Source of the DNA: Candidatus Thorarchaeota archaeon
GTDB taxonomy: Archaea; Asgardarchaeota; Heimdallarchaeia; Hodarchaeales; Hodarchaeaceae
Direction of reading: 5' to 3'
Length of the DNA: 32,000 nt
Assembly: GCA_048882505.1 (NCBI GenBank)
Contig: JBHLRO010000002.1
Location: 360,001-392,000 of the forward strand
Positions 22,867 through 29,496 of this stretch are shown here, in pieces. Made by a program: the position numbers and the translations under genes. The first letter of the stretch is position 1. Each line of letters begins with the position of its first letter. The notes beneath the pieces are model-generated. The model was not told where the DNA came from. It saw only the letters and a list, made by a program, of their open reading frames with translations, and made no database searches.

Positions 22867-23147
22867 TTTTCGGGCAGCTCCATTTTTGAGGGCACCACGG
22901 AGCCAGTTTTTTCAAAAGGATACAGTTCTTAACTCCTGAGTCATAGGCATATCGTTGCGGAAGTCATTTGCTCCCGGTTTATATCAACGTTGCTCTGATA
23001 TTTCCGAGATGCCAGGTTCAACAGCTTTTAATGTGCCTATTGATCAAGAGACCAATAGTAAGGAACAATCCTTACAATAAATGTGGTTGAAATCCCACAA
23101 GGTCATAGCCCTTCTTCTACCTTGCCCCATCATGAATAAACCAGGTT

Positions 23148-24257
23148 CTATTTGTTCCAATTTTTGAATACAGGGTCGTTATCTAGAGTCTTATCCCATA
23201 CATCATATATGAACATAAGAGGAAATCCCTCGGAATTTCCGATACAGGCAAACCCGATCTTTGTTTCCTTGTAAAAGCCGATTAGAGAGATACCACCCAC
23301 TATTCCACCAGCGACATTCATGAAAGTTTGCCCTTTGTAACCATCTTTAATACCAATGCCATAGCCCTCGAATGAGTCAGTCTTCAGCATTTTTGTCAGA
23401 TTTTCATCTTTTAGGTATCTTGACAGTTTTTTCTCAATAACACTTGGCTTAAATACTGTTTTCCCGCCTACTGATCCATTGTTCATCAGCATGTCAAGAT
23501 AGATGAGCATTTCATTACACGAAGTCACTATGCCTCCTGGTCCCTTAGTAAATTCTTCAAAGCGATATTCGGATTTAGTGAAAGTCAAATTGCCATATTC
23601 ATCCTTTTTTGGCAAATAAGGGACGGTATGGTTATCATCAATAGATGCTAGTTCTTCATCCCCCAACATGATGGTTCTCTTCATATTCAATGGGGTGAGG
23701 ATTAGGCCTCTCATCGCTTCATCAAAAGATTTCCTTGAGGTTTTTTCCACGATCATCGCAAGGAGGGAGTAGCCGATATTAGAGTACATGAATCTCCCCA
23801 GATCAGCCCTGGAGTCCTTGATTATGCTTGCGACACGCTCTAAATATTCCTCTCTTGTGTATCCCATTCTATCGATAAAAATATCCGGCAAACCAGAAGT
23901 ATGAGTCAATAGGTGATGAATGGTGATAGCTTCCGTACCAGTGCTCGTGGTAATCGAAAGATAATCAGATATGGGATCATCTACTGATAGGTTTCCCTGG
24001 TCTTCTAAGAGGAGGATTGCCAAACTGGTGAATGATTTCGAACCTGAACCGAATCGTGCGAGCGTATCCGCGTTGAAATCTTTGAAATTTTTTATGTCGC
24101 GAAATCCAACGCCAAAAGAATAGATAATTGCTCCATCTTCTATGATAGAAATCGCCATGCCTGGAAATTCTCTATTCTCGAACCTCCTCGTTATTTCTGG
24201 TTCAAAATTTTTTTTGAAGTAGTCAATATCCATGTTTATTACCCTTAGGATTAGCAA
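23148..24257 (-). CDS. Serine hydrolase, beta-lactamase class C-like family
   Basis: SxxK (SGSK), YxN (YSN), HLLTHTSGL and GPGGIVTS. Likely ATG at 24233. Confidence 0.88.
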   Translation of the reverse strand: MLILRVINMDIDYFKKNFEPEITRRFENREFPGMAISIIEDGAIIYSFGVGFRDIKNFKDFNADTLARFGSGSKSFTSLAILLLEDQGNLSVDDPISDYLSITTSTGTEAITIHHLLTHTSGLPDIFIDRMGYTREEYLERVASIIKDSRADLGRFMYSNIGYSLLAMIVEKTSRKSFDEAMRGLILTPLNMKRTIMLGDEELASIDDNHTVPYLPKKDEYGNLTFTKSEYRFEEFTKGPGGIVTSCNEMLIYLDMLMNNGSVGGKTVFKPSVIEKKLSRYLKDENLTKMLKTDSFEGYGIGIKDGYKGQTFMNVAGGIVGGISLIGFYKETKIGFACIGNSEGFPLMFIYDVWDKTLDNDPVFKNWNK

Positions 24258-24265
24258 CCAACAGG

Positions 24266-24409
24266 TGGGGATAAAATCATTATATCACTAAATCCCAAGA
24301 GCTACGAAGCTCGAATCAAAACCTCAGACATGGTTATTCTTCATTGTTATGTGCTCTGTTTCTGCTAACAGATGCAATAATGCATGTTTTCCTTAGAAAG
24401 GCTCTCGAG
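24266..24409 (+). pseudogene. Decayed paralogue of the 3' end of the RAMP-HD gene at 27977-28795
   Basis: 24281-24406 translates YITKSQELRSSNQNLRHGYSSLLCALFLLTDAIMHVFLRKAL, against YIYKSKELSLLNESLNYGHSSLRYHLLLITNLIVQDFLRGAL at 28667-28792: 21/42 identical with no gaps. In-frame TAA at 24272. Confidence 0.8.
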
Positions 24410-24517
24410 GTGTTCTTTGTGTAGAATAATCGGAGTAACGTTGTTTTGCTTATGAAACTAGAAGGCGTGCAAGTAAAATGTCAAAGGTTTCTGTTGCAGT
24501 CCCCCATTCTAGGAGGA
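24410..24517 (+). repeat. Copy A of the conserved non-coding element found 3' of the RAMP-HD gene
   Basis: 24439-24504 matches 28825-28890 at 57/66 nt without gaps. Both copies have GTGTT plus a 24-nt variable block before the core and a GC hairpin after it. Confidence 0.75.
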
Positions 24518-24634
24518 GAATTTCGGATACGTGGTCGAGTAGGTAACCTCCAACCAATTGCGGTTCATTTGAAGGACATTAGTTGGGATACCACTCAGTT
24601 ATATCCATTATTTCGCTCTATGGAGCGAAAACGG

Positions 24635-24962
24635 TCACTTGATGTTGTTTCGAAATCTGTCGAGTATATAAAAGGCGCTCGCCATCATATGTAAAGTTTT
24701 GAGGTTTTGCCTATGACTATGAATATCCCTGATATAACTGAGTAATTGGTCCTTGAAGGGGGTCTTCCTCGGCTGGAACCCCTTGATACAGACTACTCCT
24801 CGCACTCCAGCCCGCGGGGTCATTAACGAAAAAATTCCCGCGTGTGCTTGAGTGCCATGAATACCGTGGGAGGATCTTTGAGACCACACGGTGGACCTTG
24901 ACTTCCTCAAACGTATCCGCATCATACAGAATTTTCACCTGACCCCCCCGAGAGGGCTTCAT
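24635..24962 (-). pseudogene. Possible frameshifted small ORF
   Basis: ATG at 24962 lies 16 nt after the 24979 stop. Two overlapping minus-strand frames (24717-24962, 24635-24925) could join at a T6 run near 24830. No motif. Confidence 0.2.
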
Positions 24963-24978
24963 TCGTTGATAAACCGTC

Positions 24979-25770
24979 TTAACCAGGATCGCTTGACTCC
25001 AGGTATGTCGTAAGGAGTCCTAGAATTCCAGAGGTAAGAAACCCGCCGCCTAACGCAGCAAGCGGAAGGTATTGCCATTGTGTTCCCTTAGGAGCAAATG
25101 TGGTAGCGAAGAGGAAAACAAACCCCAACAGAAGAACGCTGGTAGAAAGCAGGCGAATGCTGTGAAAGAACCATGCTGGTGTTCTCCATTTGCTTTTTTG
25201 CCTAAGAGAGATGAACATGTAAGTGAAGAACACAGGTGATAAAAACAGCAGTAGTATCATCCACCCCTCGAGTGGAATAGATTGTAATATTTCTATCGGG
25301 TTTCCATTATTACCAAAGACCTCAATTTCACAGGTGAATATGTTGGTACCCGCCCCTAGCACCGTTGCCTGGAGCTTTATAGTAAGGATTTTCGAGGTGT
25401 AGGTTTCAAAGCTTTTGATTGGCTCTTCTTGGGACGTAACATCTAAGATTCCCCCAGGAGCAAGCATCAGATCTAACAGAATGATTCCAAGGTCAAAATC
25501 AAAGGTGCCTATTGTTATGTTGATATTCCCTGGGTTTGATGGCATAGACGAAATCACTATCTGCTGGATATGATGTACGTTTTTAGTTCGATGAATATAT
25601 TCACTATCACTGAATTGAACCATTTCTTGGGACGTATACTGTTGATCTGACAGCACCCACCCCCCCATTAGCCCTAGGGCAAATACCGAAACAGCAAGTA
25701 ATCCTATTGCCTGGTTTCGTTGAAGATGCAACCCTAATCGTGGAGAAAGCTGCATGTCATTTCCGCTCAA
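24979..25770 (-). CDS. Hypothetical membrane protein (one N-terminal and three C-terminal TM helices)
   Basis: 263-aa ORF with clear hydrophobic segments. Confidence 0.6.
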   Translation of the reverse strand: MSGNDMQLSPRLGLHLQRNQAIGLLAVSVFALGLMGGWVLSDQQYTSQEMVQFSDSEYIHRTKNVHHIQQIVISSMPSNPGNINITIGTFDFDLGIILLDLMLAPGGILDVTSQEEPIKSFETYTSKILTIKLQATVLGAGTNIFTCEIEVFGNNGNPIEILQSIPLEGWMILLLFLSPVFFTYMFISLRQKSKWRTPAWFFHSIRLLSTSVLLLGFVFLFATTFAPKGTQWQYLPLAALGGGFLTSGILGLLTTYLESSDPG

Positions 25771-25815
25771 AATAACCCATCATACGTGGACAGATCAACT
25801 CAACTTCCAATTTGG

Positions 25816-27351
25816 TCAATTATACGTGGACAAATCAACTTCATTTACAGTTTGGCTGTGCATTACATAAGCCCCGGAGGTCCTACTCATAATATACCCA
25901 GTCAGATCCCCAGTTATATGATTGGCATTAAAAGTATGAAGTGTCTCATGCATAGTACCTAGGGTTTGATCCCTCATGAATGGAAATATCCAAATAAAAT
26001 ATCCCTTCATCATGATTGCCTTGTTAGAGTGGCCAGGGCTGTTTAGTCCTGCCACCATTCCATTTGTATTATATTGATTAATATTCGCGAAAAGAAGATC
26101 AAACCCATGATTTTTAGAACTTGTCCCATGGGAACTTTCCCAATCACCTGATAAACCCAAGAGGTCCTTCGCTTTTGGTGCCATTTTGTTGTGGATGAGG
26201 TCATAGATATCGTTTGAGGGAGGATCCCATGTAAACACCATGCTACGAAAGTCCATAGCAAATAAGGTTCGTAAATCAGTAAGTTGTTGGTTGTACCAAA
26301 AGTCTATTAGTTCAATAGTCGTATCAAACCAAGCATTTTCATCGAATTGAATTCTGAACGCTTGATCCACCAAATGAGTTACAAAGACAACGTGAGTTCC
26401 AGACGCGGGGTCATTGACATCAAAATTCCCATGTGCGCTTGAGGGGTAGTAATTGTCACTCCAAGTCCCAGGTGCCCCAGAACCGAGGGCATAAACCCGT
26501 GTTATATCGTAATTACCTCTGTTCAAGGCGTATCTTTTTACTGGAGTCCCAGGAGAGGTGAACATGTAGTCCAAGTAGTCATGTACCACCAGAGTCATAC
26601 CAGATTCTATCCAGCCATTTTCACTATACGTTGGTGTATCATCTTCCCAAGAATTATAGGTATTGCCTTTAATTGTATATAACAAGTACTGTAGAAAGGC
26701 GAAATAGGTAGTAGGATTATATATATACGTCTTAACGTGTTCTGCTTGGCCTTTCTCAGAATCATAGGCGTAAAAACTACTTATGTAAGGGCTACTGGAT
26801 GTAACTGCAGCGCCTCCACCAGCAGTTTGGCTTTCTTGATTTGGTGGCCATTGAGGAGTTATTTCCACTGAATGACGCATTGTGCCAAAGTTCATTTTAA
26901 AGAAAAAGTGCCTGGGTAACAGGGTTGTATTAAGAGTTCTTAAGGCGAACACAACTCGGAAACTGGTACTATTCTCAGCTTTTTCTAGCGTAGTTCCGTT
27001 CGATAGCATCTTGATAACCGGGGATCCATTAGTAAGAGTTTCCATATCAAATGTGTCAGGGATTTGGAGGGAAATATCGGCATCAACCACTGAGACCCCC
27101 GTTTTGGTGCCAGTCAACTGAATTGTGAGGTCACCGTGGTCGTTAACCTCGTAAATCACCGATTCGATGCTAATACTCGCAGGTAGTGAGAAGCTTGCAA
27201 CAATGGCACTTATTGCAATAGCTGTTAACACGAATAGCGCACCTATTCGAAACATGTTATGATACGTGTATTGTTTGGTCTTATTTTTCATCTTTTCACC
27301 TTCAACCTCAGGTTTTTTGATCTCCATCGCTTCCTCGGAGACTTTCTCCAC
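25816..27351 (-). CDS. Secreted or membrane-anchored metzincin-like zinc metalloprotease
   Basis: N-terminal hydrophobic anchor IGALFVLTAIAISAIVASF. C-terminal HETLHTFNANH (HExxHxxxxxH), followed by a Met-turn-like YIMS. Confidence 0.65.
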   Translation of the reverse strand: MEKVSEEAMEIKKPEVEGEKMKNKTKQYTYHNMFRIGALFVLTAIAISAIVASFSLPASISIESVIYEVNDHGDLTIQLTGTKTGVSVVDADISLQIPDTFDMETLTNGSPVIKMLSNGTTLEKAENSTSFRVVFALRTLNTTLLPRHFFFKMNFGTMRHSVEITPQWPPNQESQTAGGGAAVTSSSPYISSFYAYDSEKGQAEHVKTYIYNPTTYFAFLQYLLYTIKGNTYNSWEDDTPTYSENGWIESGMTLVVHDYLDYMFTSPGTPVKRYALNRGNYDITRVYALGSGAPGTWSDNYYPSSAHGNFDVNDPASGTHVVFVTHLVDQAFRIQFDENAWFDTTIELIDFWYNQQLTDLRTLFAMDFRSMVFTWDPPSNDIYDLIHNKMAPKAKDLLGLSGDWESSHGTSSKNHGFDLLFANINQYNTNGMVAGLNSPGHSNKAIMMKGYFIWIFPFMRDQTLGTMHETLHTFNANHITGDLTGYIMSRTSGAYVMHSQTVNEVDLSTYN

Positions 27352-27424
27352 CCTGAAGATCGCTAGTGATTGGCCCGATCCAATATTTAAGGATTTTGAA
27401 CGCTAATGTCCAATATTTATAGCG

Positions 27425-27871
27425 ATGACCACTGATAAAGAAGCCGATAAACATGGGAATGTCTTACTTCCAGAAGGCCTTCATCTCTTAGGAAGCTGTC
27501 TTGCTGGCGAAAAAGAATGCATTCTCCATCAAATCTTTGGCTCCAAAGGGATTGAAGGTAAAATTTCTGTTTACGCAGATCCTATTGCTTCTATATCCCA
27601 CAAAACCGCTAGATTATCTGAATCCATTCAACATGTCCATATCGCTTCTGAGAATCGGATTAACTTGACCTATGATGGTAAAACAACACAGGATTTCAAA
27701 GAACGCTATTTTTCTGGCTATTTCAACTTTGAAATTGATGTGACCCATTGCTCTCCTCAACAGATCGGCTTAGTCATTGAAGGAGCTGTAGCTTTTGATA
27801 GACTAGGCCGAGGTTTCAATACGGGGTATGGTCGAGTTGAGGTCAAAAAACTCCAGTTGCTCAAACGGTGA
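27425..27871 (+). CDS. Cas7-group RAMP protein, apparently 5'-truncated
   Basis: GSC...ECILHQIFGS, thumb-like HIASENRINL and Gly-rich loop RLGRGFNTGYGRVEV, all Csm3/Cas7-like. Only 148 aa, with an in-frame stop at 27404-27406 upstream. Confidence 0.65.
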   Translation: MTTDKEADKHGNVLLPEGLHLLGSCLAGEKECILHQIFGSKGIEGKISVYADPIASISHKTARLSESIQHVHIASENRINLTYDGKTTQDFKERYFSGYFNFEIDVTHCSPQQIGLVIEGAVAFDRLGRGFNTGYGRVEVKKLQLLKR

Positions 27872-28059
27872 AAAAAACACCTGTGTTCGATAATAATGGC
27901 TCCTTTACTGTCCAGAAGAACATCACTGAAGGAGCCTTAGAAACAATGTTCAAGAACGCCCTTGAGGTCTGGCAAAATGGAACTCACGCTCGAAGGGAAA
28001 ATTCTGACTCCCATTATCACGAAGAAAACCATGTTCGAATTAGAGGGCTGTCGTGCTGA
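27868..28059 (+). CDS. Small ORF, or frameshifted C-terminus of the Cas7-like protein
   Basis: GTG overlaps the Cas7 TGA. One extra G would fuse ...LLKR to VKKTPVFD...ALEVWQN. Overlaps the next gene by 83 nt. Confidence 0.35.
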   Translation: MKKTPVFDNNGSFTVQKNITEGALETMFKNALEVWQNGTHARRENSDSHYHEENHVRIRGLSC

Positions 28060-28795
28060 GATCATCACACCGAAGCGGAGGTTCATAACTAAATCCCATA
28101 AGAAACGGAAGATTCATCCCTTCTCTTTCATCGGTTATCTGGGGAGGATCCAATTAACATACAGATGTCAGACCATGCAGCAAGCGAAAGGAAAATTGCA
28201 AACTTTACTACTAATCGATAGTATTGGGAGATTCTGGAGGGAAGGATTAGGACGGGTAGAATGGTTGTCAGGAGAAGTTGGTTCCCAATTTAAACCTAGG
28301 AAAAAGAAATATTTTAGACGCGTAAAAGTCCGCCAAGGGTTACCTCATCACCTCCCCATTCATATTCAGAAACTAATTCGTTATGCCCTACTCCATGATT
28401 TTGTGCATACCTCTAAGCATAAATCCAAAATTTATGGGGAAATCAAGGTTGAAGATCTAAATGAGATCAAAAACCACCATGAAATGTCCGAGAATCCCTT
28501 GATTCAACAGTTTCAGAAGTACGATCGGATTGCCGCCAGGATGACGCGTAACATCCGTTCCCCCCGCACCAATTGCTATACTTGGGAAGCGAAGGGAACA
28601 GTGAATTTTAAAACCTTAGCGCATAAGATCGAACAGGTAGAAAGTAATGTATGGAGATTATATGGATACATCTATAAGTCAAAAGAGTTAAGCCTGTTAA
28701 ACGAAAGCTTAAATTATGGGCATTCCTCTTTGCGATATCACTTATTGTTGATCACGAATTTAATAGTGCAAGACTTTCTTAGAGGAGCTCTCTAA
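27977..28795 (+). CDS. RAMP (Cas5-like) domain fused to an HD nuclease domain
   Basis: RAMP-like start MELTLEGKILTP and Gly loop IGRFWREGLGRVEW. HD motifs ALLHDF, NHH and YDRIAA. The C-terminal SLRYHLLL His resembles the permuted His of Cas10-type HD domains. The ORF track starts at TTG 27962; ATG 27977 is more likely. Confidence 0.65.
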   Translation: MELTLEGKILTPIITKKTMFELEGCRAEIITPKRRFITKSHKKRKIHPFSFIGYLGRIQLTYRCQTMQQAKGKLQTLLLIDSIGRFWREGLGRVEWLSGEVGSQFKPRKKKYFRRVKVRQGLPHHLPIHIQKLIRYALLHDFVHTSKHKSKIYGEIKVEDLNEIKNHHEMSENPLIQQFQKYDRIAARMTRNIRSPRTNCYTWEAKGTVNFKTLAHKIEQVESNVWRLYGYIYKSKELSLLNESLNYGHSSLRYHLLLITNLIVQDFLRGAL

Positions 28796-28899
28796 GTGTT
28801 TCCTGCACATTACAGGCAGAATTCCGTTGGTTTGCTTATGAGATGAGAAGGCGTGGAAGCAAAACGTCAAAGGTTTCTGCTCCAGTCCCCGTTTCGGGG
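28796..28899 (+). ncRNA. Candidate structured non-coding RNA or element end (copy B) immediately 3' of the RAMP-HD gene
   Basis: 57/66 nt identity with copy A. Stem TTTGCTT(28831-37)/AAGCAAA(28857-63) and terminal hairpin CCCCG-TTT-CGGGG (28887-28899). Transcription is not shown. Confidence 0.45.
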
Positions 28900-28914
28900 C
28901 ATCCTTAAGAAAAA

Positions 28915-29496
28915 GTGACGAAAATGGCCACAAATGAAGAAAAAGAAAGGTCATACGGCGACCTACTAGAGGAGCTGTATGATGGCATCATACATCTACA
29001 TGGATCATTATATGAGCCTGATGAGCAATATCGTCGATTGGTTGCGATTGAAGAATCATTAGAAACTGTCCTCAACTGGATAAAGCTAGAAAAGAACAGT
29101 CTGAGGAACTATGAAATCATGGTAGAGTGGACAAAGAAACTTGCTCTAAACACTACTCTTACTACAGCTGATATTCGAAATAGGTTGCGAGTGATGGTTT
29201 TACCCCAGGCTGAATCGTTTATTCAGAATTTAATCACAGGAGAACGCAGCGCCCTTAAGGTTTTGGAAGTAGTAAACAAAAATTTGGAAGAATTACCGTT
29301 TTTTCTCAAATCTGTCAAAGACCAGAACTTTAAATTACTTCAAGCAATTGGATATGACCCAGAGGCAGAGACCTCGTATCTTGAAACTGCGCTATACAAT
29401 TTGGTAATTGGCAGATTAATGGAGTTCGAAAAATCGATTGATTTACTTCGGGCTGCGGCCAAACAAAGTACACAGATAAGTAGAGACATATTATAG
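28915..29496 (+). CDS. Hypothetical alpha-helical protein
   Basis: 193-aa ORF, likely ATG at 28924. No motif recognised. Confidence 0.6.
   Translation: MTKMATNEEKERSYGDLLEELYDGIIHLHGSLYEPDEQYRRLVAIEESLETVLNWIKLEKNSLRNYEIMVEWTKKLALNTTLTTADIRNRLRVMVLPQAESFIQNLITGERSALKVLEVVNKNLEELPFFLKSVKDQNFKLLQAIGYDPEAETSYLETALYNLVIGRLMEFEKSIDLLRAAAKQSTQISRDIL

Follow-up and report, generated by a model that had tools for sequence, protein, structure and literature searches.

A dead Cas5-like/HD gene end and its folded element, read as the probable scar of an ARAMP-bearing insertion in an Asgard archaeal genome

How does a broken copy of the end of a CRISPR-derived gene come to lie in an intergenic stretch upstream of an intact relative, with the same folded element following both? 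The question is raised by the window, meaning the whole 32,000-nt stretch of DNA analyzed here, which lies on contig C2 of an Asgard (Heimdall-type) metagenome assembly with 41% G+C (G000). A sequence-only reading had pointed to positions 24,266 to 24,517 as the relic of a second RAMP-HD module and had suggested that related modules reached this site more than once. With a probability of roughly 70%, these positions hold a right-end scar, now decayed, left by an older insertion that carried ARAMP, a family introduced below, and a second ARAMP-ended segment was joined at the scar's element. The features are collected in Table 1.

The homology of the relic to the C terminus of the Cas5-like/HD gene is real and significant. 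A tblastn search of the window with the intact 277-aa protein (27962-28795) recovers positions 24251-24406 with 44% identity over 52 aa (E = 3.4e-6). The same query run against the whole genome, a check the sequence-only reading had proposed, finds the relic again through residues 228-277 (46%, E = 1.7e-4), and blastp of the relic translation, with X at the stop, against 93 family members gives E values from 4e-9 to 1e-7. The frame is ungapped and holds a single internal TAA at 24272-24274, which bears out the description of a stop-interrupted copy. The relic carries the changes H254Y, H260A, and N266D, and the stop codon is gone, the TAA of the intact gene being replaced by GAG at 24407-24409. 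The putative catalytic histidine said to have become alanine is indeed altered, and it is H260, invariant in the family. As an ARAMP member the relic has neither an intact reading frame nor intact catalytic residues, and it most likely has no function today.

The extent of divergence needs a more careful reading. In the blastp comparison the relic protein stands at ~35-47% from every one of the 93 members, and a closer affinity to some other family clade was rejected on this equal distance. Since the relic is equidistant from all members, the ~50% divergence is not a paralogue distance that could date two arrivals. The earlier conclusion survives in part: the relic is not a recent tandem duplicate and belongs to an older second module, but most of the divergence reflects pseudogene decay.

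The intact gene downstream belongs to a cassette with a broken Cas7-like gene. The model of the 277-aa protein (pLDDT 82) has an N-terminal domain that resembles RAMP subunits from solved type I, III, IV, and VII CRISPR effector complexes, at modest Z scores of 6-7.7, while residues 132-277 resemble the HD domain of Csm1 (6mua_A) at a similarly modest Z of 5.9. The residues invariant in the family are HD, HH, D, and H260. Full-length homologues of the Cas7-like gene match PADLOC Csm3 (E = 9e-8) and Pfam RAMPs (E = 1.9e-5). The window's own two cassette proteins have no match in Pfam or NCBIfam, the 277-aa protein has none among PDB sequences by phmmer, and Foldseek of its model against the PDB returns only weak RAMP rows with E values of 0.01 or more. 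No CRISPR array turned up in a k-mer scan of the 4.3-Mb assembly (94.5% complete). Among the 93 proteins, most of which carry no source name, every named hit comes from an Asgard lineage; of the 51 genome loci, one is titled Bathyarchaeia and the other 50 bear an Asgard or unnamed-archaeon title. Relatives of the Cas5-like/HD gene are often present in several copies per genome. Full cassettes elsewhere also carry two small genes and, in divergent orientation, a gene of 1,000-1,336 aa; the latter is absent at this locus, and no Cas1 match for it came from Pfam, PADLOC, or a PDB profile search.

The cassette matches ARAMP (Asgard RAMP; Makarova et al. 2020, CRISPR J 3:156), a catalogued array-less CRISPR derivative of the Asgard archaea. 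The part of PMC8730458 that summarizes ARAMP describes it as one of the array-less CRISPR derivatives, restricted to Asgard, with very diverged Cas7 and Cas5 homologues, a nuclease, and in most loci a large neighbor gene called a distinct Cas1; its mechanism is termed enigmatic there. The present cassette resembles that description in its Asgard host, diverged Cas7 and Cas5 homologues, nuclease, lack of a CRISPR array, and large neighbor gene in full loci. It differs in that the ARAMP summary in PMC8730458 makes no mention of an RNA partner, a mobile-island context, or 3' scars, and in that the flagged piece is a dead fragment. HRAMP (haloarchaeal RAMP; Makarova et al. 2019, via PMC8730458) is likewise summarized in that source as a CRISPR-less Cas5/Cas7 derivative with added nucleases, but in another lineage and with another gene set.

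Table 1. Features of the window bearing on the relic, the intact cassette, and the segment between them (W1 and W2 are the two element copies; G016 is the sister genome)
Feature	Position	Strand	Details
Serine hydrolase, beta-lactamase family	23148..24257	-	Start adjoins the point where the relic is truncated at its 5' end; same place in G016
Dead Cas5-like/HD (ARAMP) C terminus, 52 codons	24251..24409	+	tblastn, blastp, frame inspection
Relic element copy W1	24376..24518	+	nhmmer 24376-24508, E = 2e-24; alignments; starts within the dead coding tail; lacks the tail motif CATCCTTAAGA
K-turn-like hairpin of the relic element	24444..24478	+	Outer stem kept, one G-U
Mosaic zone 1	24222-24437		G016 = W1 at 64 sites vs 15 and 9; G016-W1 82%
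Mosaic zone 2	24460-24504	+	W1 = W2 with G016 different at 14 sites vs 1 and 2; W1-W2 89%, G016-W1 60%
Mosaic zone 3	tail		G016 = W2 at 9 sites vs 0 and 2; G016-W2 85%
4.4-kb segment in G000, absent in G016	24512..28916	.	Left edge in or just after the last hairpin of W1; right edge just after the W2 tail
Membrane protein, 263 aa, within the 4.4-kb segment	24979..25770	-	
Secreted/membrane protein, 511 aa, HExxH motif, within the 4.4-kb segment	25816..27351	-	
Cas7-like gene, broken	27419..27981	+	Pieces 27419-27871 and 27856-27981; residues 1-86 absent; frameshift near the 3' end
Cas5-like RAMP + Cas10-type HD gene, intact, 277 aa	27962..28795	+	Structure model, fold matches, invariant residues
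Complete element copy W2	28760..28910	+	K-turn hairpin 28830-28865, last hairpin 28886-28900, tail 28901-28910
193-aa gene, right flank conserved across the genus	28915..29496	+	

The element that follows both gene ends is the second shared feature, and its presence 3' of the relic was correctly recognized: 28762-28890 aligns with 24376-24504 at 74% over 129 nt (E = 8e-18), with a 66-nt core at 86%. The element is conserved 3' of the Cas5-like/HD gene in distant genomes. Its central hairpin has two stems that are 92-93% paired, with eight pairs altered on both sides, and a covariation score of 0.544 vs 0.183 in shuffles (0 of 500 as high) and at most 0.206 when the partners are slid. Intact copies fit the kink-turn consensus, tandem G.A/A.G pairs included, with a stem, a 3-nt bulge, UGA opposite GGA, a 3-bp stem, and the loop AGAAGG. 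Downstream of the central hairpin come a last hairpin, variable in its loop, and an 11-nt tail, CATCCTTAAGA. Neither Rfam nor ARAGORN gave a match on the window. Nucleotide-level constraint starts only ~35 nt before the stop codon. In W1 the conserved GGA has become GCA, one inner pair is broken, and the otherwise invariant tail motif has been replaced; the orthologous relic element in the sister genome has a decayed hexaloop.

Element copies outnumber the genes they accompany. G000 holds at least nine copies vs two full genes; the copies come after full genes in two cases and after C-terminal fragments in four, and another three to five are solitary and in decay. A 51-kb region of contig C2 (70722-121798) contains six copies or fragments, at 70.7k, 84.7k, 93.3k, 97.9k, and 99.5k on the plus strand and at 121.8k on the minus strand, and is a hot spot of ARAMP scars.

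The most direct evidence on the history of the locus comes from the sister genome G016, with ~90% DNA identity to G000. It carries the same relic at the same position, with the serine hydrolase gene alongside, and shares the TAA, H254Y, N266D, and the lost stop codon. By these shared lesions, the scar was broken already in the common ancestor of G000 and G016. The comparison of empty and filled versions of the locus that the sequence-only reading had called for can thus be made: G016 has the relic and lacks the 4.4-kb second module, and the breakpoints fall at the 3' ends of the two element copies. The 4.4-kb segment contains two opposite-strand genes, the broken Cas7-like gene, the intact Cas5-HD gene, and the second element. 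The filled junction is bridged by independent contigs from other runs, in which no joint was seen, and both alleles occur within one study, one sample holding the two. The base composition of the segment is not distinctive.

The 4.4-kb difference fits a gain in G000 and also a loss in G016 through recombination of one element copy with the other. Either way, an additional difference is needed in G016, which has 75 nt before the 193-aa gene that are absent in G000. Homology of this 75-nt spacer to the DNA after the relic was considered and rejected, as 236 of 300 shuffles score as high. Only ~5-15 nt separate the tail of W2 from the start codon region of the 193-aa gene (window 28901-28925), as compared with ~85 nt in G016, and the gene may depend in G000 on read-through from the cassette.

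A probable earlier state of the site is seen in five other members of the genus, where hypE and hypF (read by eye) lie between an amidohydrolase gene and the 193-aa gene. This suggests that the hydrolase and the cassette replaced them in the ancestor of G000 and G016. The hypE/hypF site corresponds to window 22867-24257 as compared with loci L067-L071, and in G000 the only copies of these genes are distant ones (41-48%), on contig C7. In two other genomes, ARAMP pieces have a homologue of the 511-aa protein of the 4.4-kb segment as their neighbor. The family, of ~500-aa secreted or membrane proteins with a C-terminal HExxH, is found repeatedly next to ARAMP genes or scars, in either orientation (window 25816-27351, G016:C58:1263-1940, and G002:C204:124386-125669).

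A three-way alignment of W1, W2, and the G016 relic shows a mosaic of three zones that differ in site pattern (chi-square p = 9e-15). In the middle zone the identity between the orthologues drops to 60%, vs 82% in the coding relic (p = 0.002). Selection on one copy cannot push orthologues beyond their neutral difference, whereas conversion can, and from this pattern 24460-24504 is best read as a recombination or conversion tract and not as a product of slow divergence. An overwriting of the middle of W1 from the other copy would explain why the core looks young and the coding part old. An origin of the G016 middle zone in another element copy was also considered, and no similar copy was found.

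Boundaries of the same kind are found at other loci. For example, the cassette on contig C38 of genome G001 is absent in its close relative G013, where homology restarts exactly past the tail motif. On contig C21 of G001, the cassette ends a 15.1-kb insertion (72052-87144) that is also absent in G013, with the edge 13 nt after the last hairpin; this island has no terminal repeat of at least 9 nt, no terminal inverted repeat, and no target-site duplication, and 37 nt of the empty site were replaced. In a third comparison, G016:C9 has 1,058 nt inserted directly after CTTAAGA that are missing from G000:C27. The 3' end of the element is thereby shown to bound variable DNA recurrently. No older scar was present where the two G001 islands landed, so stacking does not hold as a general rule. 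A third G001 remnant was left out of the comparison, its contig consisting mostly of repeats.

Several smaller observations belong to these loci. The 1,058-nt piece (L095 3792-4849) has copies in G000 on C66 (85%) and at C27:32.3k (77%) and contains, by eye, a cytidylyltransferase-like fragment. A 10.9-kb gene stretch of G001 that is absent in G013 (L110 1401-12292, contig C8) borders the empty-site flank of the C38 cassette. A ~360-nt repeat on G001:C41 (L102 2517-2878) has at least 13 copies in G013 at 77-94%; this repeat and a separate one of ~120 nt (L102 1-127) are MITE-like families of the genus.

Across the genus, what remains of the gene is its 3' end. A whole-protein search of 22 genomes, all metagenome assemblies and, as relatives, not independent samples, found 11 full-length copies and ~30 partial ones, and every partial copy is C-terminal, starting between residues 140 and 252 and ending between residues 266 and 277. 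Two hits with earlier ends (225 and 234) belong to split remnants at these loci, of which they form the upstream part. N-terminal-only remnants number zero among the 22 genomes, and a search with the first 140 residues alone returns the full-length copies and one weak extra hit. The Cas7-like gene leaves almost no fragments. Remnants of the Cas5-like/HD gene concentrate within its last 400 nt, and no common motif was found upstream of the truncation points. A functional RNA reaching far into the gene was considered as an explanation for remnants of 400-500 nt and rejected; conservation at synonymous codons is raised only in the last seven or so codons.

One case shows how such scars can form. 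The remnant at C2:70.4k, which begins at residue 169, is orthologous (90%) to a near-full-length G016:C58 gene that begins at residue 11-21. This longer orthologue indicates that scars also arise by erosion of the 5' part in place.

Under the preferred reading of a decayed right-end scar joined by a second segment, a first ARAMP-bearing insertion would have left the last 52 codons and the terminal folded element. The scar probably came with the serine hydrolase gene, when hypE and hypF were replaced. A second, 4.4-kb segment with its own Cas7-like/Cas5-HD pair and element would then have been placed exactly at the end of the scar's element, and recombination between W1 and W2 would have overwritten the middle of W1. 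More generally, we infer that the 3' end of the element serves as a working terminus or a preferred joining site of mobile islands, which can stack there and leave 3' scars behind. The suggestion that modules arrived repeatedly, as expected of a site-preferring element, holds to this extent: an older second module did exist at the locus, and island edges at the end of the element fit a mobile unit that prefers certain sites or is defined by its end. The high core identity reflects a local recombination tract.

The same observations can be arranged without a second arrival. The module may have been duplicated in tandem in place before G000 and G016 split, with decay of the upstream copy and later loss of the downstream copy from G016 through the element repeats. 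The two copies form direct repeats with a spacing of 4.4 kb, and the single element left in G016 is W1-like on its left with a W2-like tail, as would be produced by a repeat-mediated deletion. We nevertheless consider this history unlikely. Two unrelated opposite-strand genes lie between the copies, the second cassette is itself truncated at its 5' end, the middle zone of G016 matches neither copy, the 75 nt before the 193-aa gene have no counterpart in G000, and at other loci close relatives differ in the presence of a cassette. It is also possible to take the element as the part that matters, with the coding region dead and 24376-24518 kept under selection as an orphan RNA gene serving in trans the proteins of 27962-28795 or of contig C24. 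Identity to the intact copy is 86-89% in the core vs 46% in the coding part, the outer stem is intact with a G-U pair where other copies covary, and elements are more numerous than protein genes. Working against such a role are the damaged GGA, inner pair, and tail motif of W1, the decayed hexaloop of its G016 orthologue, the visible decay of other orphan copies in G000, and the low orthologue identity of the tract relative to the neutral coding relic, which a conversion tract can produce but selection on W1 alone cannot; a working orphan RNA is a quite improbable explanation.

A different possibility is that the relic was never complete at this site. Copying that started at the end of the element and often aborted, in the manner of 5'-truncated LINEs or one-ended rolling-circle elements, would account for the constant 3' end, the variable 5' ends, and the lengths skewed toward short pieces that are seen among the remnants, and for the lack of a common motif upstream of the truncation points. 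The C2:70.4k remnant, truncated in place as its near-full-length G016 orthologue indicates, points the other way, and an unsystematic look at the cassettes saw no reverse transcriptase or rolling-circle gene; truncation on arrival is very unlikely. The reading as a scar of an older ARAMP-bearing insertion remains the preferred one.

Several well-known systems offer partial parallels for such a scar. Partial copies of tRNA genes left as att scars are likewise 3' fragments of a structured-RNA gene at island borders, with the possibility of stacking at the same site. In the present case, however, the order is partial copy first and intact copy downstream, neither an integrase of the tyrosine or serine type nor an exact att core was identified, and two islands landed without an earlier copy at the site. 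The attC sites of integrons resemble the element as folded, covarying sites that close each cassette, receive insertions, and form arrays of one orientation. Here, the kink-turn consensus points instead to RNA and not to folded DNA, and no IntI-like gene or conserved crossover core was found. As with the omega-RNA of TnpB and IscB in the IS200/IS605 group, a folded RNA overlaps the 3' end of a nuclease gene and extends to where the mobile unit stops. The two sets of proteins are unrelated (RAMP and HD here, not RuvC), and a guide derived from the flank would be hypothetical here.

A bolder proposal takes this last parallel further. The last hairpin and the 11-13-nt tail could act as a single CRISPR-repeat-like unit whose "spacer" is the chromosomal DNA past the end of the island, such that a read-through RNA carried by the Cas7-like/Cas5-HD complex would recognize its own insertion site. 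This is a long shot. Were it true, empty sites could be cut or marked for homing or retention, as with TnpB, or the next insertion could be guided to the same place, and the scars would be the footprints of such events.

To our knowledge, no filled and empty versions of a site have been compared before for an ARAMP cassette, and the pair from G000 and G016 would be the first. Three further filled/empty pairs agree with it in placing the exact edge of strain-specific DNA at the terminal folded element. When the genes of the cassette are gone, the element persists as a 3' scar, and recombination takes place among its copies. These junctions tie ARAMP, which is catalogued but functionally uncharacterized, to mobile islands, and they offer a concrete alternative, or a complement, to viewing the element as nothing more than a missing guide RNA.

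A gene for the ribosomal protein L7Ae (read by eye; G000:C2:70993-71370, L096 4993-5370) lies ~100 nt downstream of one copy of the element, and the same arrangement is found in G016:C58. The adjacency may be due to chance, or the K-turn may have been reused for L7Ae control.
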